Source of the DNA: Blastocatellia bacterium
GTDB lineage: Bacteria > Acidobacteriota > Blastocatellia > RBC074
Length of the DNA: 51,309 nucleotides
Direction of reading: 5' to 3'
NCBI GenBank assembly: GCA_035275805.1
Contig: DATEMG010000282.1
Coordinates: 1-51,309 of the forward strand
This document shows, in pieces, positions 1 to 51,260 of the stretch. The notes under the pieces were generated by a model. That model was given only the letters and a program-made list of their open reading frames with translations, did not search any database and was not told the DNA's origin. How positions within the stretch are numbered: position 1 is the first letter of the stretch; the number at the start of each line of letters is the position of its first letter. Both the position numbers and the translations under genes were made by a program.

Positions 1-117
1 CGTTGGACTCAGAAGTCCAAATCGTAACTGGCGACTTAAGAGCCTGGTCACGATGTACCGCCGCAAACTTGGTTACGATGTGTGACCGCAGGCGGGACAC
101 CAAGTGTCACCGCCTAA

Positions 118-247
118 CAGTCAGATGTCAGATGTCAGATGTCAGATGAAGTCAGAAGTCAGAAGTTTGATGTTAGATGGTAGATGTTAGTGAGGGGCTC
201 CGGCGCTAGTCTTTCACTGACATCTGACATCTGACATCTGACATCTG
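118..247. repeat. Hairpin element with (GTCAGAT)n arms
   Basis: 122-148 is the exact reverse complement of 221-247 (27 bp), each arm about 4 tandem heptamers. Degenerate heptamers continue into the 72-nt interior. The element ends 13 nt before the ftsA ATG. Confidence 0.9.
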
Positions 248-260
248 GAGAGGGAAGACA

Positions 261-1514
<1,254 letters not shown>

Positions 1515-1658
1515 GCTATTGGCGTCACGACCTCTTGTGTTAAAATCCGCCGCCTGCTACAGGAGCGTGCGCCGAATTGAAATGCAGAATCATACGGGGT
1601 CTGCGGTTTCCTCGGCTAGATAAATCAGCAGACTACTGAAACACCAGTAGGAGGTAGG

Positions 1659-2816
1659 ATGTCGTTAGATGATCGCACAGGGCTGAATTTCACTTTCGGT
1701 GACGAGCCGCCACAGGCGGGCGCGCGAATCAAAGTCATCGGCGTCGGAGGCGGCGGGAGCAATGCCATAAACCACATGATCGACGCCCGCATCGAGGGCG
1801 TCGAGTTCCTGGTGGCGAACACGGACCTTCAGGCGCTCAACAGGTCACAGGCGCCGGTCAGAGTGCAACTCGGCGCGAGGCTCACCAAAGGTTTAGGCGC
1901 CGGCGCCAACCCCGAAGTCGGGCGCGACGCCGCGCTCGAAGACACCGAGAAGATACTGGAGGTGTTGGAAAACTCCGATATGGTTTTCGTCACCGTCGGC
2001 CTGGGGGGCGGCACCGGCACCGGCGCAGCGCCGATCATCGCCTCGCTCGCGGCCGAACTTGACGCGTTGACGGTAGCCGTCGTCACGAAACCTTTCCCTT
2101 TTGAGGGCCGCCATCGCATGCGCCAGGCCGAGGCCGGTTTGGAAGAGCTGCGATCGGTCGTCGACACTTTGATCACGATCCCGAACGAACGGCTGCTGCA
2201 TGCCGCCGACCGCAGCACGTCGCTTTCGGACGGGTTCAAGATGGCCGACGACGTGCTGCGCCAGGCCGTCCAGGGCATCTCCGACCTGATCACCATCCCC
2301 GGCTTTATCAACGTCGATTTCGCCGACGTCCGCGCGATCATGAAGGGCATGGGCTTTGCGCTGATGGGCACCGGGCATGCGGTCGGCGAAAACCGGGCCA
2401 TGGATGCGACGCAGCGCGCGATCTCCAGCCCGCTCCTCGAAGAGGCTTCGATCAACGGCGCCAAAGGCGTATTGGTGAACATCACCGGAGGCGGCGACTT
2501 GACGCTCTTCGAATTCGACGAAGCGATGAGGGTCATTCACGACGCAGCCGACCCCGAAGCCAATATCATCACCGGCATGGTGACGGATGAACGCATGCAG
2601 AATGAAATGAAGATCACCGTCATCGCTACAGGCTTCGAAAGTCATAAAAAGAACGAGAAAGTTCATAACATGCCGGTCCGTCAAACCACGGCCGGCGGTC
2701 ACAGCAATTTGAACGCCGCGCAACCCAGAATCGCTCCTCCTTCCCCAGGCTCAATCCCCCTCAGGACGGAGGCGGATCTTGAAATTCCGACCTTTATGCG
2801 GAAGAAGGCTGACTAG
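1659..2816 (+). CDS. ftsZ: Cell division GTPase FtsZ
   Basis: [13 protein letters not shown] and the tubulin signature [18 protein letters not shown] upstream. Conserved ftsA-ftsZ order. Confidence 0.97.
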
Positions 2817-3224
2817 TCGGATTTTACGATCTCCCCTGCCATCCCTCTTGCGTTGACAAATTTCATAAGGTAGCATTGCTTTATCAACGAGCAACAGTAA
2901 TCGTGAGGCGTCTGAGCAAATAGCGCTATCGCTGATTCCCGCAAAGTCCACCGTTGATCTCACGTGGGGAAGTTGTCATACCTGTGTTGGCCCTTGTCGG
3001 CTCCAGCTTAGTCTGACGACGGGCTTTTAAATCGGCTCTTAATAGTTGGCGCGCTTGTCGGTTGATTTCAATCCTCATTCCCGCTGGCTACGACGTGCGA
3101 AATTGACTTGTTGGACAATCCGCTCGAATAAGGCGGGCTTACGGCTCGTTACTGTCGCTCTATTCAGGGGCAGAGGGTCAGACTGTCCCTTCACTTTTCA
3201 ACAAAACTCACAGGAGAAGCGATC

Positions 3225-3599
3225 GTGAATCGGAAATTAATTCGCACCACACTGGCAGAGGTCAAAGAGAGAGAGATGCAAGCGCAGCAGGCGCGCCGCA
3301 TCGTCCCTGAACCGCGCCCGGAACCTACCACTCCGTCGCCGCACCACCCACACCAGCCTGTTGGGCAGAAGAAGAAAATTCCCCCCGAGCAGACCAATGC
3401 GGAGAGCTTCTATTATAAGAAGCAGATGGACGCGCACACGCCGATGGTCCTAGTATTGCGGGACAATGAGGAATTGCGCGGCACAATCGAATGGTACGAT
3501 AAAAACAGCATTAAACTGCACCGCGACGAAGGCCCGAACCTGCTCATCCTCAAACATAACATCAAGTATATGTACAAGGATGAGAAAAACCGCGACTGA
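3225..3599 (+). CDS. hfq: Hfq-like (Sm-fold) RNA-binding protein with a Pro-rich N-terminal extension
   Basis: The C-terminal 65 aa fit the Hfq pattern: helix [10 protein letters not shown], Sm1-like [26 protein letters not shown], Sm2-like [11 protein letters not shown] (cf. YKHAI). GTG start preceded by AGGAGA. Confidence 0.55.
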
Positions 3600-3637
3600 T
3601 CTGCGCGAGCGCGCGCATTGACAATGAATAGCGGCGC

Positions 3638-4675
3638 ATGAACGCACAAGCTCCTGCAGCGGCAAGGACGAGGCCGCGCATCGGCCTCACCATCGGCGAC
3701 CCGGCCGGCATCGGCCCCGAGGTGACGCTCAAGGCCGCGTCGGAAGAGGAAGTCCTCGCCGTCTGCGCGCCGGTGATAATAGGTGACGCCCAATATCTGT
3801 CGCATTGGGCTCGGGTTTTCGGCTTGAGCCGGGGGTTCGATTGCGTAAACGCCGGCGCCCCCATCCCCCACGAACAAAACACGCCAATCATTTACAACTT
3901 GAACAACATTCCCGGCTCGATCGAGATGGGCCGTGAACAGGCGGAGTGTGGCCGCGCCGCCGCACAATTCATCGAGGTTGCGTCCTGGCTCTGTCTTTCG
4001 GGCCAATTGGACGCGGTGGTCACCGCGCCCATCAACAAAAAGTCGCTTTACCTGGCGGGATACCCTTTCCCAGGTCACACGGAGTTTCTGGCCCAGTTGA
4101 CGGGGACGGATGAATTCGCCATGGCGTTCATCACGCCGACGTTGCGCGTGGCGCTGCTCACCACACACTTAGCCCTCTCCGACGTTCCGGGCCACGTCAA
4201 AAAAGCCAAGCTCGAAAGTTTGATTCGCCTGGTATATCGCGAATTGACGGCTTATGGCGTCGAACGCCCGCGCATCGCCGTGGCCGCGCTGAACCCGCAT
4301 GGAGGGGAGGGGACTCTCTTCGGATTTGAGGAGGCTTCGGAAATGATTCCGGCCATCGAGTCATGCCGCGACCACGACAGGATCGATGTCAGCGGCCCGC
4401 ACTCCGGCGACACTATTTTCCTTCGCGCCGCGCGCGGGGAATTCGACATCGTCATCTCGTGTTACCACGATCAGGGTCTGATCCCCGTGAAATGCCTTTC
4501 ATTTGGCGAAGCGGTCAACGTCACGTTGGGGCTTCCGTTCATTCGCACTTCCGTAGACCACGGCACGGCGTTCGACATCGCCGGGCAAGGCAGGGCCGAT
4601 CATTCGAGTATGGTCGCGGCCATTAAACTCGCCGCCGAGCTTTTCAATCGTAAAAAGCAGGCTAATTCGGCATAG
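3638..4675 (+). CDS. pdxA: 4-hydroxythreonine-4-phosphate dehydrogenase PdxA
   Basis: GLTIGDPAGIGPEV N-terminus, FPGHTEFLA, HGGEG, YHDQGLIP and TSVDHGTAFDIAG motifs typical of the PdxA family. Confidence 0.9.
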   Translation: MNAQAPAAARTRPRIGLTIGDPAGIGPEVTLKAASEEEVLAVCAPVIIGDAQYLSHWARVFGLSRGFDCVNAGAPIPHEQNTPIIYNLNNIPGSIEMGREQAECGRAAAQFIEVASWLCLSGQLDAVVTAPINKKSLYLAGYPFPGHTEFLAQLTGTDEFAMAFITPTLRVALLTTHLALSDVPGHVKKAKLESLIRLVYRELTAYGVERPRIAVAALNPHGGEGTLFGFEEASEMIPAIESCRDHDRIDVSGPHSGDTIFLRAARGEFDIVISCYHDQGLIPVKCLSFGEAVNVTLGLPFIRTSVDHGTAFDIAGQGRADHSSMVAAIKLAAELFNRKKQANSA

Positions 4676-8800: not shown

Positions 8801-8862
8801 TTTGATAAAATAGGATCTATAGGGCCTATGAGCCTTATAAATCCTATTTGGAGGAGGGAAAC

Positions 8863-21969: not shown

Positions 21970-22080
21970 TCAGTACCGCGAGCGGTAGCGAGCGTGGCCG
22001 AATCAGCCGACGCATTGATGAAATCACGCTCGTTACCGCTCGCGGTACTGATTACGCTCGTTATCACTCGCGGTGCTGAT
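21968..22080. repeat. ATCAGTACCGCGAGCGGTAGCGAGCG hairpin element (family copy 1, extra half-arm)
   Basis: 21968-21996 pairs with 22025-22053 (one mismatch). A further degenerate right-arm copy lies at 22054-22080. The element starts inside the stop codon of the upstream gene. Confidence 0.9.
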
Positions 22081-41395: not shown

Positions 41396-41401
41396 GGAGG
41401 T

Positions 41402-41489
41402 GACGGGGCGACAAGGCGACGGGGCGACAAGGCGACGAGGAGAATGGGACAGAAAGCGCCCCCTGTCGCCCCGTCGCCTTGTCGCCCCG
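41402..41489. repeat. GGCGAC-unit hairpin element (family copy 2)
   Basis: The G-rich arm 41402-41440 pairs with the C-rich arm 41464-41489. The loop GGAGAATGGGACAGAAAGC is shared with copy 1. The element starts 7 nt after the VWA gene stop. Confidence 0.9.
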
Positions 41490-42784: not shown

Positions 42785-42876
42785 CCAGTGGACAGTGGAC
42801 AGTGGACAGTAGAGAGTGATTAGCGCTTTGCTGCCCACTGCCCACTGCCCACTGCCCACTGCCCACTGCCCACTGC
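42785..42876. repeat. Hairpin element with (CAGTGGA)n versus (CCCACTG)n arms
   Basis: Left arm of 3-4 heptamers, right arm of 5 heptamers. Complementary except one position per heptamer. It fills the yacL-like/ispD gap and ends 3 nt before the ispD ATG. Confidence 0.9.
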
Positions 42877-46149: not shown

Positions 46150-46219
46150 AATCAGTACCGCGAGCGGTAGCGAGCGGGCTTCACGCTGAGACGCGCTCGC
46201 TACCGCTCGCGGTACTGAT
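46150..46219. repeat. ATCAGTACCGCGAGCGGTAGCGAGCG hairpin element (family copy 2)
   Basis: 46151-46176 is the exact reverse complement of 46194-46219 (26 bp). It lies between convergent deoA and the STAND gene. Confidence 0.9.
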
Positions 46220-46368: not shown

Positions 46369-49300
46369 TCATGGCTCTTTGTCGAAATAGCGCAGCTTGT
46401 GCTTGACCTTCTCCACCGCCGCGCGCGCCGCTTCTTTTACCTCATCCGACTCATCGGTCGCCGCAAGTCGCTCTAACTCAGTCAGGCAAGGCTCCTTGAC
46501 GTAATAGCCTACCACCTCCGCCGCCTTGCGCCGGACGGAATTCTTCTTATCGTCCAGAGCTAGCATCAATCCCGCCGCGAAATTTTCGGCCTTATCAGCG
46601 GCTATGCTGCCCAGCGCAGATGCCGCGCGCCCTCGAACATCAGACTCCTGAGCCTCAAGCAGAGCTTTGAGCAAAGCGTCCACGGCTCGCTCCGAACCGA
46701 TGCTGCCCAGCGCCTCTGCCGCGTCCCCTCGAACATAAAACTCCTGATCTTCGAGCAGAGCTTTGAGCAAAGCGTCCACGGCTTGCTCCGAACCGATGCT
46801 GCCCAGCGCCTCTGCCGCGCGCCATCGAACATCAGACTTCTGATCTTCGAGCAGAGCTTTGAGCAAAGCGTCCACGGCTCGCTCCGAACCGATGCTGCCC
46901 AGCGCCTCTGCCGCGTTCCCTCGAACATAAGACTTCTGATCTTCAAGCAGGGCTTTGAGCAAAGCGTCCACGGCCCGCTCCGAACCGATGCTACCCAGCG
47001 CCTCTGCCGCGCGCCATCGAACAGAAGGCTCCTGAGCTTCGAGCAGAGCTTTGAGCAAAGCGTCCACGGCCCGCTCCGAACCGATGCTGCCCAGCGCCTC
47101 TGCCGCACTCCCTCGAACACCAGACTCCTGAGTTTCGAGCAGGGCTTTGAATAAAGCGTCCACGGCTCGCTCCGAACCGATGCTGCCCAGCGCCTCTGCC
47201 GCGCGCCCTCGAACATAAGACTCCTGATCTTCGAGCAGGGCTTTGAGCAAAGCGTCCACGGCCCGCTCCGAACCGATGCTGCCCAGCGCCTCTGCCGCGC
47301 GCCCTCGAACAGAAGAATCGTTGGCGCTGTCCAGACGTGCGGCGACGCCGAGCGCGACGGGGTCGAGCGCTTCCCCTCGCGCTTGAGCGAATGCCCGGAC
47401 GACGGAGTGGAAATAAGGCGTCGCTTCGGGTTTCGCGGAGGTGATGAAATCATCGAGACGCTGGAGCATCTTTTGCAGCGTTTGCGGTTTTACCTTTGCC
47501 GAGGCCAGGCCGCGAGCGCGAAGCCGCAGCAGTTTGTGATCGAGCGATTCGGGCAATTGCTCCAGCGTTTCGTACATGCGGTCGGGATTGCGAACAATGC
47601 TCAGCGCCATCGGCAGCGTCTCCATCTCGACCAGCAGAGGATGGAAACAGGCGCGGACGAAGACGCTTTCGCAATCGGCATGGGCAGCCAAAGCTTTAGC
47701 GGCCAGGTATTCCTGCAAGGTCAGGTGCGAAAAAGACCAGACGTTTTCGGCCACTTCGCGCACCATCGGCGTGGCCGTCACATCGGCGGCCAGAGTGAAC
47801 GCTTCCCGAGCGTCCCGGCAAAAGCGCCGCGCCGAGGCTTCGATGAAATCGGTGGTGAAGGCGACACGCTCAGCCTCTTTGCCCTGTTCGACGCCGTCGT
47901 CGAAAAGACGATCGAACGCCAGTTGATTGAGGAAAGCCAGCTTCAGACGGCCATCGTGATCGTCAAGCCTGAATCGTTCGACATTCTTCTGGCTGTCGAT
48001 CCTCGCGGCCAGGTCAGCGACAATGCCTTCGTAAAGTTTCAGCCGGTCAGTTTCGACTTTACCACTTAGACGGATACGCCGCACGATGGCGCTAATCAGC
48101 GTCGGCACGCTGACCAGATCGCTCAGGTCGGGGCTCACCAACTTGGGCAAAAGCTTTCGGCCTTCATCCTTGCCGAAGTAATGATCGAGGAAAAGCGCGA
48201 TCTGGTCGCGGTTGAACGGGGCGATCTCCATCTCTTCAGCCTTGCCGAACCGGCGGTCGCGTAACGCGAAAGGCCGCGACGAGATGATCATCAGGTTATT
48301 GCCGTGATCTTCGACAAAACGATTGATCGAATCGCAGAGATGAGAGAAATGCTTCTCCCATCCGCGGACTTCATCCAATCCGTCGAGTAACGCGACGATC
48401 TCGCCCGATTCGAGCCGCCGCGCAAATTCGTCCCGCAACCGTTCACGCCCTGCTCCGTTCGCGTCCGGCTTCTTCAACAATTCCGTGGCGGCGTGGTCGA
48501 ACAAGACGGATTCGAGCCTGACATCGGCGCCATTGAACGATTCCTTGTTGAGTCCTTTCATCTCGACGAAGATCGGAATGCGTTTCGGATCGTTGTCGCA
48601 GACCTGCAGCGCCAGCCATCGCATCAACGTCGTTTTGCCGCATCCTGGAGCGCCCGCAATCACCGCAGGCTCCCGGCGTTTCAACAGGTCTTCAGGCTTG
48701 ATCCGGCGTTGGGCTTCCCGGTCTTTGCGAGGCCGGGAACCGAAAGCAGCGTAGCGGGCGCGTAACTCGGAGTCCCACATCCCCATCCATTCATCGTTGG
48801 CGGTCGGGCGGCTGTAACTCTCGTTGATGGACAATTCGACGAAGACCCGTTTCAGTTCATGGGCTTCAGTTTCGCCGAGCAGCGTTATCTTGCCGTACTT
48901 TTTCCTGATCTGATCGCGGTAAGCTGTGAGCAGGTTTTCGATTGATTGCGCCGAAGCTGTCTGCGCCGAGTCATTCCGTAAAGCGGCGGGCGAACCGAGT
49001 TTGAATTTGTCGCGGATGAAGTTGGTCAGGTGATTGCGGACTATGTCTTCGAAATCCTTTTCATCGTTGTAACCCCACCACAATCCTTTGGCGGGGAATT
49101 TCTCTTTGAACCCCAGCACTTGCACCCACTGTTCGCCCTCGCTCTTCGATTGCGGGTAGTAGGGTTTTTGGCTGAAGTAGACGAAAATTTGCGGGCTGCG
49201 TTTCTCGTTCCAGGCGCAGATGGCTAGATTGATCTCGTGCTCGGTTCCGGTCTGGCCGTCGGCGGTCGGCGTGCCGAATTTTTTCCAGAAAATTCCGATC

Positions 49301-49530
49301 AGCAGGTCGCAGTCCGTGATTTTTATGATCGGATCAATCAGACCTTGCGGGCCTTCGGGGTGAAATCCGGGATACGCGTCTGTTTCCCAGCGCGACAACA
49401 CGAGGCTCAGCCCGCGGTCGGCGGCGACGCCGCGATTCAATTCCTCGATCACATTCGGCAATAGATCACGTTCGGCTTTCACATCACTGGGCGATGCGAC
49501 TACGATTCTGAGGTCTCGCTTTTGCACCAT
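46369..49530 (-). CDS. STAND NTPase: TIR-like/DUF4062-like N-terminal domain, NACHT P-loop module, C-terminal HEAT-type repeats
   Basis: The N-terminal domain reads IVVASPSDVKAERD...CDLLIGIFWKKFGTPT...GTEHEI...IFVYF. Walker A is IAGAPGCGKTTL and Walker B is VALLDGLDEV. Nine units of VRxxAAEALGSIGSERAVDALLKALL follow. Start set at the ATG at 49530, preceded by AGGAG at 8 nt. Confidence 0.85.
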   Translation of the reverse strand: MVQKRDLRIVVASPSDVKAERDLLPNVIEELNRGVAADRGLSLVLSRWETDAYPGFHPEGPQGLIDPIIKITDCDLLIGIFWKKFGTPTADGQTGTEHEINLAICAWNEKRSPQIFVYFSQKPYYPQSKSEGEQWVQVLGFKEKFPAKGLWWGYNDEKDFEDIVRNHLTNFIRDKFKLGSPAALRNDSAQTASAQSIENLLTAYRDQIRKKYGKITLLGETEAHELKRVFVELSINESYSRPTANDEWMGMWDSELRARYAAFGSRPRKDREAQRRIKPEDLLKRREPAVIAGAPGCGKTTLMRWLALQVCDNDPKRIPIFVEMKGLNKESFNGADVRLESVLFDHAATELLKKPDANGAGRERLRDEFARRLESGEIVALLDGLDEVRGWEKHFSHLCDSINRFVEDHGNNLMIISSRPFALRDRRFGKAEEMEIAPFNRDQIALFLDHYFGKDEGRKLLPKLVSPDLSDLVSVPTLISAIVRRIRLSGKVETDRLKLYEGIVADLAARIDSQKNVERFRLDDHDGRLKLAFLNQLAFDRLFDDGVEQGKEAERVAFTTDFIEASARRFCRDAREAFTLAADVTATPMVREVAENVWSFSHLTLQEYLAAKALAAHADCESVFVRACFHPLLVEMETLPMALSIVRNPDRMYETLEQLPESLDHKLLRLRARGLASAKVKPQTLQKMLQRLDDFITSAKPEATPYFHSVVRAFAQARGEALDPVALGVAARLDSANDSSVRGRAAEALGSIGSERAVDALLKALLEDQESYVRGRAAEALGSIGSERAVDALFKALLETQESGVRGSAAEALGSIGSERAVDALLKALLEAQEPSVRWRAAEALGSIGSERAVDALLKALLEDQKSYVRGNAAEALGSIGSERAVDALLKALLEDQKSDVRWRAAEALGSIGSEQAVDALLKALLEDQEFYVRGDAAEALGSIGSERAVDALLKALLEAQESDVRGRAASALGSIAADKAENFAAGLMLALDDKKNSVRRKAAEVVGYYVKEPCLTELERLAATDESDEVKEAARAAVEKVKHKLRYFDKEP
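46639..47310 (-). repeat. Seven near-identical 96-bp tandem repeats (32-aa HEAT-type units) inside the STAND gene
   Basis: The ATGCTGCCCAGCGC landmark recurs at 46700, 46796, 46892, 46988, 47084, 47180 and 47276 (exact 96-nt period). Two degenerate units follow toward 46440. Confidence 0.95.
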
Positions 49531-49714
49531 AAGCAAAACTCCTGATTGGCCTGAATCAATGCGTCGCAATAGTGCGACATTCACGGCGAATGTTTCAAGG
49601 TTTTCTTTGGCGGTTGCCCGTGGGGAATCGAGTGGGCGATAATCGCCGCGCCCACAAAAAAGGCGCGCCCCTTGCGCCTGGTCCGGTGAAAGAAAGTCTC
49701 ATCAAAGAAAGTCA

Positions 49715-50731
49715 ATGAACATAAGACGTATTGATCTCTGGGTTCTGTTGATTTGTTGTTCGCTGCCGTTTGGCGGCTGCGCCACGCGCGAATTCGTCGC
49801 CGAGGCCGACGCGGGGAAAAAGAAGGTCGGCATCGTTTTCGACATCGGTGGCAAGGACGACCGTTCGTTTAACGCCGCCGCAAACACGGGCGTAGTGCGC
49901 GCGAAAAAAGATTTCCCGATCGTCCTGCGCGACGTTGAGCCTGGCGACCCGACTTCGATCGAGCCGGCGCTGCGAGTTTTCGCGCAATACGGCTACAACC
50001 TTATTACCGGTGTGGGATTCGCCCAGGGGCCGATCCTGAGAGAAGTGGCGAAGGATTACCCTCAGCTACATTTCGTGCTGATTGACTCTGTGGCCGATTC
50101 GCCGAACGTAGCCAGCCTGGTGTTCAGAGAGCACGAAGGGTCGTTCCTGGTCGGGATGATTGCGGCTTACGCCTCGAGGACCGGCGCGATCGGCTTCGTC
50201 GGCGGGATGGACATCCCGCTGATCCACAGGTTCAAGACCGGGTACGAGGAGGGCGCGCATTACGTCAATCCGAACATCAGAGTCATGCACAATTATGTCG
50301 GCATCACCGACGCGGCCTGGAACAACCCGGGCAAAGGGCGCGAACTGGCCAACGCGCAGTACGAGCAGGGCGCGGACGTGATCTTCCAGGCTGCCGGCAA
50401 TTCGGGGCTGGGCGTCTTCGACGCCGCCGAGGCTTACGACAAATTCGCCATCGGGGTCGACGCCAACCAGAACTGGGTCAAGCCCGGTCACGTCCTGACC
50501 AGCATGCTCAAACGGATCGACAACGCCGTTTACAGCATCGTCAAAGACGAGGTCGAGGGGAAATTCAAGGGCGGCGTTCATGTTTACGGCCTGGAGAACG
50601 ATGGCATCGGCTACGCGATTGACGAATACAACAGACATCTGATCCCATCTATAGTGATTGAAAAGGTCGAACAGGCTCGTCTCGACATCATCGCGGGCAA
50701 GATCAAAGTGACCGATGCAATGGCGAAGTGA
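49715..50731 (+). CDS. BMP-family (PnrA/Med-like) ABC-transporter substrate-binding lipoprotein
   Basis: Lipobox LPFGGC, VGIVFDIGGKDDRSFN, GVDANQ. Confidence 0.88.
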   Translation: MNIRRIDLWVLLICCSLPFGGCATREFVAEADAGKKKVGIVFDIGGKDDRSFNAAANTGVVRAKKDFPIVLRDVEPGDPTSIEPALRVFAQYGYNLITGVGFAQGPILREVAKDYPQLHFVLIDSVADSPNVASLVFREHEGSFLVGMIAAYASRTGAIGFVGGMDIPLIHRFKTGYEEGAHYVNPNIRVMHNYVGITDAAWNNPGKGRELANAQYEQGADVIFQAAGNSGLGVFDAAEAYDKFAIGVDANQNWVKPGHVLTSMLKRIDNAVYSIVKDEVEGKFKGGVHVYGLENDGIGYAIDEYNRHLIPSIVIEKVEQARLDIIAGKIKVTDAMAK

Positions 50732-50732
50732 A

Positions 50733-50769
50733 GCGACAGGGCGACAGGGCGACGGGGCGACGGGGCGAG
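50733..50769. repeat. GGCGAC-unit G-rich arm (family copy 3, left part)
   Basis: GCGACAGGGCGACAGGGCGACGGGGCGACGGGGCGAG, starting 2 nt after the BMP gene stop. Confidence 0.85.
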
Positions 50770-50813
50770 AAAATCCAGGTTGGACTGAAAAATATGACAG
50801 AGTAGGCGCCCGC

Positions 50814-51188
50814 ATGGAAAAGATCAAAGGTTACAAAGATCTTCGCGTTTATCAGGCTGCTATTGATGCAGCCATGTCAATCTTTACTCTGACGAAACAT
50901 TTCCCGCCCGAGGAGAAATACTCGATGGTTGACCAGATGCGTCGCTCGTCTCGCTCTGTTTGCGCCAAGATCGCTGAAGCTTGGCGCAAACGGCGATATC
51001 CCGCACATTTTGTCAGCAAGTTGAGCGATTCGGAAAGTGAAGCGGAAGAGACAAGGGTTTGGATCGAACTCGCGCATCGTTGTGGCTATCTGAAGAAGGA
51101 GAGGGCCGATGAACTTGATGACTGTTATGACAAGATCCTCGGACAGCTTGTTCTGATGATTAACGCTCCAGAGAAATGGACTCTGTGA
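50814..51188 (+). CDS. Four-helix-bundle protein (23S rRNA intervening-sequence protein / Avd-like family)
   Basis: YKDLRVYQAAIDAAMSIFTLTKHFPPEEKYSMVDQMRRSSRSVCAKIAEAWRKR...E is the family hallmark. Start set at MEKIKGY; the upstream part of the track ORF translates a repeat arm. Confidence 0.8.
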   Translation: MEKIKGYKDLRVYQAAIDAAMSIFTLTKHFPPEEKYSMVDQMRRSSRSVCAKIAEAWRKRRYPAHFVSKLSDSESEAEETRVWIELAHRCGYLKKERADELDDCYDKILGQLVLMINAPEKWTL

Positions 51189-51212
51189 CTTGAAGACTGA
51201 AAATGAAAATCT

Positions 51213-51260
51213 GGCGATGTGGCGACCGGGCGACCGGGTGATTTGGCGACTGGGCGAGGG
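51213..51260. repeat. GGCGAC-unit G-rich arm (family copy 3, right part, same orientation)
   Basis: GGCGATGTGGCGACCGGGCGACCGGGTGATTTGGCGACTGGGCGAGGGG. Any C-rich partner arm would lie beyond the window end. Confidence 0.8.

Follow-up and report, generated by a model that had tools for sequence, protein, structure and literature searches.

On the minus strand of a 51,309-nucleotide contig from Blastocatellia bacterium (DATEMG010000282.1, assembly GCA_035275805.1; the whole of this stretch is called the window below), an NLR-like gene contains a tandem array of seven 96-bp repeats, which probably serves as the solenoid that senses the ligand in a single-chain NLR-like (STAND/NACHT) receptor of an uncultured Acidobacteriota bacterium. 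In the structural model of this region, the seven near-identical PBS-type HEAT units form an alpha-solenoid resembling that of the artificial alphaRep proteins, and each unit presents one small hypervariable patch, comprising the three-residue loop that leads from helix B to helix A, as well as the first two turns of the inner helix A.

Tandem Repeats Finder (TRF) delineates a single array at positions 46604-47316, with a period of 96, 7.4 copies, 90% matches, and no indels. The seven units that are in the frame of the minus-strand open reading frame (ORF) extend exactly from 47310 down to 46639, unit k occupying positions 47310-96(k-1) down to 47215-96(k-1), and an eighth unit (46543-46638) is degenerate and forms part of the C-terminal cap. 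The translated unit reads VR[G/W][R/S/N/D]AAEALGSIGSERAVDALLKALLE[D/T/A]Q[E/K][S/P/F][Y/G/S/D], so that the amino-acid-variable positions are 3 (G/W), 4 (R/S/N/D), 28 (D/T/A), 30 (E/K), 31 (S/P/F), and 32 (Y/G/S/D); only two further replacements occur, R16Q in unit 6 and L22F in unit 2. An initial annotation, made from the letters of this DNA alone, had placed seven 96-bp units at the same coordinates and had limited their variation to the same positions, and both statements agree with the TRF result, the in-frame register, and the unit translations. At the nucleotide level, any two units match at 85-92 of the 96 bases, with 19 variable columns, and purely synonymous differences, absent from that annotation, are found in six scaffold codons (10, 16, 21, 24, 26, and 27). 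Averaged over all pairs, the amino-acid identity of the units amounts to 0.87 (224 residues). Six of the eight amino-acid-variable codons lie inside one circular stretch of nine codons (permutation P = 0.037), and non-synonymous and synonymous variable columns are distributed differently between patch and scaffold (Fisher P = 0.006), both tests being post hoc.

The scaffold is under strong purifying selection. In the Nei-Gojobori comparison of the seven window units, its 26 codons have a non-synonymous divergence (dN) of 0.010 and a synonymous divergence (dS) of 0.123, with dN/dS of 0.08. In the patch of six codons dN lies well above dS (0.43 and 0.08), the resulting dN/dS of 5.4 being calculated for codons that were selected post hoc on the same data and being imprecise, because the patch contains only ~4 synonymous sites. 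Synonymous changes, which the initial annotation had suggested weighing against the non-synonymous ones across the units, are not as frequent as these. The contrast between patch and scaffold repeats in three other arrays, found on contigs that carry orthologues of the gene (designated here by numbers with the prefix L): with the patch defined as in the window, dN/dS amounts to 7.8 in L002, 5.4 in L004, and 3.75 in L007, as well as 1.4 in L005, and the scaffold values in these four arrays are 0.46-0.58.

The AlphaFold2 model of residues 691-1053, calculated from a single sequence, consists of regular helix pairs, with a mean predicted local distance difference test score (pLDDT) of 83 that rises above 90 through the repeats. 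In this model helix A starts with positions 31-32 of the previous unit and continues through positions 1-12; it is followed by a loop (13-14), helix B (15-27), and the loop connecting helix B with the next helix A (28-30). Variable positions 28 and 30 fall in the B-to-A loop and positions 31, 32, 3, and 4 in the first two turns of helix A, an arrangement that bears out the earlier assignment of the variability to one inter-repeat turn plus a helix start. With the helical periodicity of 100 degrees, positions 32, 3, 4, 7, and 11 share one face of helix A, spanning an arc of ~100 degrees, and this periodicity, together with the homology to alphaRep, suggests that the patch residues are on a single face of the solenoid.

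The solved structures nearest by sequence and fold are those of artificial alphaRep proteins (E 1e-64 to 8.5e-104, identity 47-53%), which also provide the best Foldseek matches (target-normalised template-modelling score 0.61-0.75). The positions varied in the alphaRep library (18, 19, 22, 23, 26, and 30) are located on the concave face and contact the targets in crystal complexes (PMC3754942). In the alphaRep sequences, VR is preceded by two of them and followed by two more, one comes after AA, and one after ALG, and reading these sequences against the published numbering equates them with unit positions 31, 32, 3, 4, 7, and 11 of the window array. Of the six positions that vary in the window, four (31, 32, 3, and 4) thus coincide with engineered binding positions, and the remaining two, 28 and 30, belong to the adjoining loop, where this 32-residue clade has one residue more. 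Across 17 arrays of the family, the within-array entropy peaks at positions 3, 4, 7, and 11 and at the last three or four positions of the unit. The coincidence with the alphaRep binding positions, taken with the excess of dN over dS, is in line with the diversification of a putative contact surface that had been proposed from the letters.

The same observations could be viewed as neutral relaxation, in which a recently expanded structural or scaffolding HEAT solenoid varies at its least constrained exposed loop, with neither ligand recognition nor diversifying selection. Positions 28-30 are indeed in a loop, loops and helix N termini tolerate substitutions, and the sample is small. Relaxation alone would bring the ratio to ~1, however, whereas the dN of the patch exceeds both its own dS and the dS of the scaffold (~0.12), an excess seen again in L002, L004, and L007. 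Scaffold positions that are likewise exposed, on the convex helix B, are invariant, the variable set coincides with the positions of the alphaRep binding face, and the array belongs to a protein with the tripartite build of NLRs, whose sensor is the repeat domain. We therefore regard neutral relaxation as unlikely, and retain a diversified sensor surface as the preferred explanation of the patch.

The units of the array do not evolve independently of each other. In the four-gamete test of the window array, 20 of the 28 informative site pairs show all four gametes, including the purely synonymous pairs 48/72, 48/78, and 72/78; the units are therefore mosaics, and the pattern points to short-tract recombination among them, or else to recurrent mutation. 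Within-array scaffold dS is ~0.13 in the window and 0.18 in L004, compared with 0.47 for the non-repeat parts of these two genes. Since the within-array values are lower, the units must have been duplicated or homogenised after the split of the lineages, although the array as such is older than the divergence of the orthologues, all of which share a 32-residue array and its cap. The concerted evolution suggested by the initial annotation is thus found in these data.

The number of full units at the orthologous locus varies from one (L009 and L010), two (L003), three (L001), and seven (window) to 12 (L011), 13 (L005 and L007), 14 (L002 and L004), and 16 (L013), with the limitation that short-read assembly is the probable origin of the window, L001, and the short contigs, where individual counts of one to three may be collapsed. 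L001 and the window differ by one single-nucleotide polymorphism (SNP) in ~10 kb of the downstream flank and by none in the 1578 nt of the non-repeat part of the gene, and contain three and seven units, respectively. Units 1 and 2 of L001 are identical to those of the window, and its unit 3 equals unit 3 of the window for 82 nt, after which it ends with a tail (EDQESD) that is present in no window unit and is joined directly to the cap. This junction (VRGS...EDQESD plus the cap) carries three base differences in the 20 bases preceding the cap and is absent from the window. Since an assembly made with k = 141 contains only k-mers that were sequenced, the junction represents a real allele even if the unit count in L001 was collapsed. 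A simple unequal crossover between window units 3 and 7, considered as the origin of the three-unit allele, was rejected, as codon 28 of its last unit (GAT) is found in neither parent; the allele must for this reason be a more complex mosaic or derive from an unsampled allele.

Two further comparisons bear on the number of units. L007 and L013 (contigs from JGI, compared over positions 1-3670) are 99.9% identical through unit 13 and only ~82% identical thereafter, with an offset of 288 nt (three units), which places a recombination breakpoint between diverged haplotypes inside the array. L002 is a 1.14-Mb contig of the uncultured Acidobacteriota metagenome-assembled genome (MAG) MFD06229.bin.2.137; deep Nanopore sequencing was the basis of the Microflora Danica MAG catalogue (PMC12313526). 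L003, a 539-kb contig whose ENA accession and naming are like those of L002, appears to come from the same long-read project. Judged by name and size, both contigs would belong to the Nanopore-based Microflora Danica set, and they carry 14 and two units at the same locus. In L002, the 14-unit array of the TIR-NACHT-HEAT orthologue is divided into ORFs of 948 and 285 residues by one extra T at ~8835-8850 (GAGTTCTGATGTT in place of GAGTCTGATGTT), either through a Nanopore homopolymer error or because the gene is a recent pseudogene.

The unstable repeat number and polymorphic patch residues anticipated by the initial annotation are thus seen both in the range of 1-16 units among orthologues and in the pair of genomes separated by one SNP in the flank. 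Its further idea of the repeat count acting as a "specificity switch" is speculation; in-frame gain or loss of units changes the length and the surface of the solenoid, not the state of expression.

That the array, or the differences in unit number, might result from collapse or expansion of repeats in short-read assemblies, with no real polymorphism behind them, had also been raised as a concern. The seven units are all distinct, and as the longest exact repeat inside the window array is 67 nt, each unit is unique to reads or k-mers longer than 67 nt and can be resolved by ordinary reads. On the other hand, cluster members on contigs of 2-3 kb have only one or two units, L001 is a MEGAHIT-style k141 contig, and one member of the same 90% cluster (P0122, on a contig of 2124 nt) enters the array in the wrong frame or orientation. 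P0122 is normal up to ...LDHKLLRL and continues with an alternative frame or orientation of the repeat (ILMSDGARQRRWAASVRSEPW...); it is a chimeric short-read contig mis-assembled at the array, and it serves as a warning about unit counts from short contigs. An artefact would not account for the L001 junction, which is missing from the window and hence marks a different allele, for the 14 and two units of L002 and L003, or for the recurrence of the array and of its hypervariable positions in hundreds of homologues. The low counts on short contigs may thus be collapsed, and yet an artefactual origin of the polymorphism as a whole seems improbable.

The protein that carries the array has the tripartite architecture of NLRs, with an N-terminal effector, a central nucleotide-binding oligomerisation domain (NOD), and C-terminal repeats, as judged from Pfam and PADLOC matches. 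The mechanical ORF (46369-49584, minus strand) begins with GTG at 49584 and would encode 1071 residues, whereas the homologues begin at the ATG at 49530 (MVQKRDL / MEQK...); as the homologue starts (MEQK...) align with this ATG, the product was taken to have 1053 residues, and exactly this protein is present in a public collection as P0121. The stop codon occupies 46369-46371. Pfam scores are 280.7 bits for HEAT_2, 145.2 bits for HEAT_PBS, and 40.3 bits for NACHT, the last (PF05729, residues 307-472 of the 1071-residue ORF) against a cut-off of 26.7. The Walker A motif is GAPGCGKT, with Gly293, Gly298, and Lys299 invariant in 121 homologues, and in the Walker B region (LLDGLDE) Asp383, Asp386, and Glu387 are nearly invariant in the same set. 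The helical linker that follows is 100% identical in L001 and has 88-92% amino-acid identity in L002 and L003. NCBIfam matches to phycobilin lyase and NblB were rejected as an indication of function, since they are far under their cut-offs and reflect only the shared type of repeat.

The N-terminal domain is assigned to the DUF4062 family. Its first 230 residues match the PADLOC defence candidate PDC-S60 (E = 6.6e-33), and DUF4062 is matched by all 11 of the aligned relatives of this domain, which are 62-69% identical to it (best E = 6.8e-7). DUF4062, also termed "NIR", is a TIR-like NADase with a catalytic glutamate at about residues 97-108 (E97 in KpSwz, E98 in Vulcan, and E108 in PsAvs2), and it is the effector of anti-phage systems that include an Avs2, Swarozyc, and Vulcan (NIR-HEAT) (bioRxiv 10.64898/2026.05.01.722283; 10.64898/2026.09.04.749371). 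Another preprint of 2026 on DUF4062 deals with a system called Evangelion. In the window protein, the motif G95-T-E97-H-E99 is invariant and lies at a comparable distance from the N terminus. A profile search of the domain against the PDB sequences gave nothing meaningful, and its single-sequence AlphaFold2 model reached a pLDDT of only 40.

Among homologues, the N terminus may be exchanged for TIR, SIR2, PNP_UDP, a cyclase, or a metallophosphatase. In most of the more distant relatives, the N-terminal domain of the window protein is 50-70% identical in proteins that are otherwise only ~40-45% identical, and a DUF4062-type domain (57-68% identical) is C-terminal in cyanobacterial NACHT-HEAT proteins and is also found inside a leucine-rich repeat/Roc-GTPase protein (P0081, P0093, P0116, P0112, P0095); since it is C-terminal in some of the cyanobacterial homologues, the domain behaves as a mobile module, passing from one receptor chassis, and from one end, to another. 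At the locus itself, DUF4062 is carried by the window, L001, and L003, and is replaced by a TIR domain in L002 (6001-6500), L005 (1042-1550), L006, and L007 (300-800). The junction lies just upstream of the conserved YRDQI.KKYGKITLLGE, and the remaining part of these proteins is 76-88% identical to the window protein in amino acids. TIR domains count among the effectors with which bacterial NACHT proteins target NAD+. The replacement looks like a swap of one NADase for another by recombination, and the exchange on a shared chassis would fit a modular NADase effector.

In the mechanism that we propose, the 96-bp units would undergo unequal crossing-over and short-tract gene conversion, which would keep the scaffold homogeneous and at the same time reshuffle, add, and delete units, with selection retaining the diversity of the patches, which would align along the solenoid as a target-binding surface. 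Binding of a phage protein, or of another non-self protein, might then release the autoinhibition of NACHT and lead to oligomerisation, and the DUF4062/NIR domains clustered in this way could hydrolyse nicotinamide adenine dinucleotide (NAD+), causing growth arrest or abortive infection. A more far-reaching version, which we put forward only tentatively and consider less likely to be true than not, is that of a natural, rapidly recombining "alphaRep library". At one fixed place in the chromosome, Acidobacteriota populations would maintain an NLR whose HEAT units are reshuffled, gained, and lost as fast as strains diverge (one SNP per 10 kb of flank), creating lineage-specific combinatorial surfaces and, in the population, an anticipatory repertoire of receptors. 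Independently of this, the chassis would exchange its NADase effector (DUF4062 or TIR).

Several points weigh against the interpretation of the array as the sensor of a defence receptor, in addition to the limits of the patch dN/dS and of the lowest unit counts given above. Gene conversion breaks the assumptions of pairwise dN/dS, and the method used is not recombination-aware. Positions 7 and 11 are invariant in the window array, so only one edge of the alphaRep-type face varies. Genome-specific homogenisation was not seen among the window, L002, and L003, within-array dS being 0.13 and between-array dS 0.11-0.14; because the two are about equal in close relatives, homogenisation is visible only against the more distant orthologues, and the units of these three genomes behave as a shared pool on a short timescale. 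The window protein itself scores 18.7-19.3 bits with DUF4062, under the Pfam cut-off of 24.7, and a glutamate of the GTEHE motif is only a candidate catalytic residue, proposed from its position and invariance. The gene is located among housekeeping genes (ispD, ispF, nucleoside phosphorylase, Bmp lipoprotein), with no recognisable defence island, and the role of the protein in phage defence is putative, as is a non-self ligand.

The position of the gene, kept at one place in the chromosome among housekeeping genes across several genomes, could also suit a regulator of the AfsR/MalT type, a STAND protein sensing an endogenous protein or metabolite, with a repeat array that would vary because it co-evolves with a self partner; NLR-related proteins without an immune role are reported from bacteria (bioRxiv 10.64898/2026.09.02.748808). 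Such a role is, in our estimate, quite improbable. The protein has no DNA-binding output domain, its output being DUF4062 or TIR, both typical abortive-infection effectors, and the extreme polymorphism of unit number and patch between near-identical genomes would not be expected for a conserved self ligand. The flanks of the locus are, moreover, variable and rich in toxin-antitoxin-like genes in relatives.

Mutagenesis of the patch by template-directed, adenine-specific reverse transcription in a diversity-generating retroelement (DGR), a process known to diversify the sensors of bacterial NLR-like proteins (PMC10907252) and suggested here by a neighbouring gene (50715-51188) with weak similarity to bAvd (Pfam E = 4.3e-5) and Avd (NCBIfam, 24.3 bits), is most improbable: this neighbour is an ordinary TIGR02436 / 23S_rRNA_IVP protein, at 24.3 bits against an Avd cut-off of 80, and is absent from L002 and L003; a second (template) copy of the unit was not found in the window; the ten largest other ORFs, to which the scan for a reverse transcriptase was limited, are housekeeping genes and encode none; the consensus bases at the variable columns are G, C, T, and A alike, with no preference for adenine; and the patches are seven, dispersed over tandem units, not a single variable region. 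With template copy, adenine bias, reverse transcriptase in the large ORFs, and a bona fide Avd all not found, the array was rejected as a DGR target.

The features of the locus are collected in Table 1.

Table 1. Coordinates of the NLR-like gene, its domains and repeat units, and the adjoining palindrome in the window.
Feature	Position	Strand	Evidence
Palindrome with 33-nt arms, between the convergent NLR and pyrimidine-nucleoside phosphorylase genes	46151..46219	.	Inverted repeat, 91% complementary
NLR-like gene, 1053 aa (DUF4062/NIR, NACHT, helical linker, HEAT_PBS repeats)	46369..49530	-	ORF list, Pfam, homologue N-termini
Degenerate C-terminal cap repeats (VRGRAASALGSIAADKAENFAAGLMLAL... 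to ...KLRYFDKEP), kept across orthologues	46372..46638	-	Register table, homologues, model
Array of seven highly internally conserved 96-bp / 32-aa HEAT_PBS units	46639..47310	-	TRF and register table
Degenerate N-terminal cap unit (SVVRAFAQARGEALDPVALGVAARLDSANDSS)	47311..47406	-	Register table; helix-loop-helix at model residues 19-50
Helical linker, NACHT to repeats	47407..48168	-	Alignment; model shows helices at its C-terminal end
NACHT NTPase module	48169..48666	-	Pfam PF05729, E = 3.6e-10, above gathering score; invariant columns
N-terminal effector domain, ~aa 1-185, DUF4062 ("NIR", TIR-like NADase) family	48976..49530	-	PADLOC PDC-S60; DUF4062 matches of relatives

Two ORFs that overlap the array, 46602-47453 (minus strand) and 46783-47154 (plus strand), were discarded as genes, being alternative frames of the repeat that lack stop codons. 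The NLR gene is located between the gene of a Bmp/PnrA-like lipoprotein and that of a pyrimidine-nucleoside phosphorylase, a position that it also has in L001, L002, and L003; in L004, L005, and L006 it is found just upstream of the phosphorylase gene, and those contigs do not include the Bmp side. The stretch 1-39000 of the window has the content of an ordinary chromosome, including ftsA, a class A penicillin-binding protein gene, glmS, a radA-like gene, an acyl-CoA synthetase gene, genes of VWA proteins, trmFO, and ispD/ispF, and none of the ten largest window ORFs that were scanned is a defence-island or mobile-element gene. A metallophosphatase gene comes after the NLR gene in relatives; it overlaps the stop codon of the NLR gene in L005-L007, and in L004 two small genes lie between them. 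Toxin-antitoxin-like genes of small size (PIN, UPF0175/DUF3368, DUF5678) also flank the NLR gene there, and these various neighbours are found in L004 (4757-6156), L005 (64-983 and 4608-5273), and L007 (3905-5001). Neither the metallophosphatase nor toxin-antitoxin-like neighbours of the NLR gene are present in the window, and the site adjacent to the nucleoside phosphorylase gene acts as a variable hotspot.

The core of the palindrome downstream of the gene, GTACCGCGAGCGGTAGCGAGCG, has four matches in the window, compared with 0.02 expected by chance, and further copies of the palindrome are found at 21973-22048 in the window, as well as in L001 (10380-10440), L002 (1671-1732), and L003 (10984-11137). 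It is a dispersed element similar to repetitive extragenic palindromic (REP) sequences, separate from the repeat array, and the copy at 46151-46219 may possibly act as a bidirectional terminator. Scans for promoters and terminators around the NLR gene gave no more matches than shuffled sequence. The four-helix-bundle gene (23S_rRNA_IVP / TIGR02436, 50715-51188) adjoins the Bmp gene in the window and L001, and is absent from L002 and L003. Near its 3' end, 22 mismatches between the window and L001 are found within 100 nt (51152-51251), after which the alignment ends, the flank being otherwise identical. Short tandem repeats occur near several gene boundaries, comprising a 16-mer (x2.5, 41398-41437), CAGTGGA (x4.7, 42786-42818), CTGCCCA (x6.6, perfect, 42831-42876), and GCGACAGG (x4.5, 50733-50768), and the CTGCCCA run lies between a PIN/TRAM gene and ispD.

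Comparison with known systems places the array in a mode of evolution that has been described before, that of highly internally conserved (HIC) NLR repeats, and no new principle is revealed by it. In fungal NLRs, loci with WD, ANK, TPR, and HEAT repeats combine high internal conservation with a few positively selected positions, polymorphism in repeat number, and concerted evolution (PMC4986451). HIC repeats were defined there by units >85% identical over at least 100 residues within one protein (Dyrka et al. 2014, PMC4986451), and the window array, with an identity of 0.87 over 224 residues, qualifies. Like the HET-E, HET-D, and HNWD family proteins of Podospora, the window protein has the tripartite effector-NOD-repeat arrangement, units >85% identical, hypervariable positions under positive selection, variable repeat number, and concerted evolution by shuffling of units. 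In the fungal proteins, the hypervariable positions map to the binding face and exchange between paralogues is documented; in the window array, the placement is derived from secondary structure, periodicity, and equivalence with alphaRep. The window protein also differs in being bacterial (Acidobacteriota), in its PBS-type HEAT repeat of 31/32 residues, and in its DUF4062 effector.

Transcription activator-like effectors (TALEs) are likewise built from near-identical units of ~33 residues with few variable residues in each, and their arrays are prone to recombination, the number and order of units setting the specificity. However, TALEs have a different fold and read DNA with one base per unit, through the repeat-variable diresidue at positions 12/13, and the PBS-type HEAT units of the window do not have the features that define a TALE. 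The comparison is an analogy only; the likely ligand here would be a protein surface, for which a one-to-one code is not to be expected.

Among bacterial NLRs, WD and TPR units that are 80-90% identical have been reported and a rapid, fungus-like diversification was proposed (Dyrka et al. 2020, bioRxiv 10.1101/2020.01.06.895854), so that the precedent in fungal and bacterial NLR-like repeats invoked by the initial annotation does exist in the literature. The text of that preprint, in which Marold 2015 and Hu 2017 are cited, nowhere mentions HEAT repeats and contains no per-site or population analysis, whereas the array described here is of the HEAT_PBS type, has an acidobacterial host, and has been measured for selection, mosaicism, and polymorphism. 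DGR-diversified sensors (PMC10907252) are alike in their apparent goal, the hypervariation of the sensor in a STAND or conflict-system protein, but the diversity in the window comes from point substitutions retained by selection and from recombination among units. NACHT-HEAT and NIR-NLR architectures are already listed in surveys, and the bNACHT proteins (Kibby et al.), the Avs proteins (Gao et al.), and the NIR systems (PsAvs2-NIR, Vulcan, Swarozyc) share with the window protein an N-terminal enzymatic effector, a STAND NTPase, and a C-terminal repeat sensor. The Avs and bNACHT sensors characterised so far recognise phage proteins that are conserved, and the texts consulted on them make no mention of near-identical repeats carrying hypervariable patches; the window protein is distant from any NLR that has been tested (NCBIfam EruA, 59.6 bits against a cut-off of 1000). 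In the open-access papers that were searched, the regime seen here was not found described for PBS-type HEAT repeats of bacterial NACHT proteins, nor was a link found between hypervariable NLR repeats and the positions of the alphaRep library.

Bacterial NLR-like defence proteins have so far been described as recognising conserved phage proteins, with diversification of their sensors little explored, and alleles of almost identical genomes that differ in unit number and patch residues make this locus a compact and tractable case. If the role of the array as a sensor is true, the diversification mode of the fungal "highly conserved repeats" would extend to HEAT repeats and to Acidobacteria, and would also be linked to the newly characterised DUF4062/NIR NADase effector.

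The closest structural parallel remains that with alphaRep (PDB 3LTJ, 4JW2, 4XL5, 6FSQ; PMC3754942), a laboratory-proven binder scaffold. The two share the fold, a scaffold 47-53% identical, the motif VRxxAAxALGxIG-ERAV-LikAL, and a variable number of units, and library positions 18, 19, 22, and 23 are equivalent to the natural hypervariable positions 31, 32, 3, and 4. They differ in that the designed unit has 31 residues and that of the window clade 32, the extra residue being in the B-to-A loop. Library positions 26 and 30 (7 and 11 here), also randomised in alphaRep, are invariant in the window array and variable in L002 and the wider family, whereas positions 28 and 30, which vary in the window array, are fixed (D/E) in alphaRep. 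With natural hypervariable positions that coincide with the engineered ones, the locus also supplies natural data on tolerated combinations of patch residues, which would be useful for the engineering of repeat proteins.

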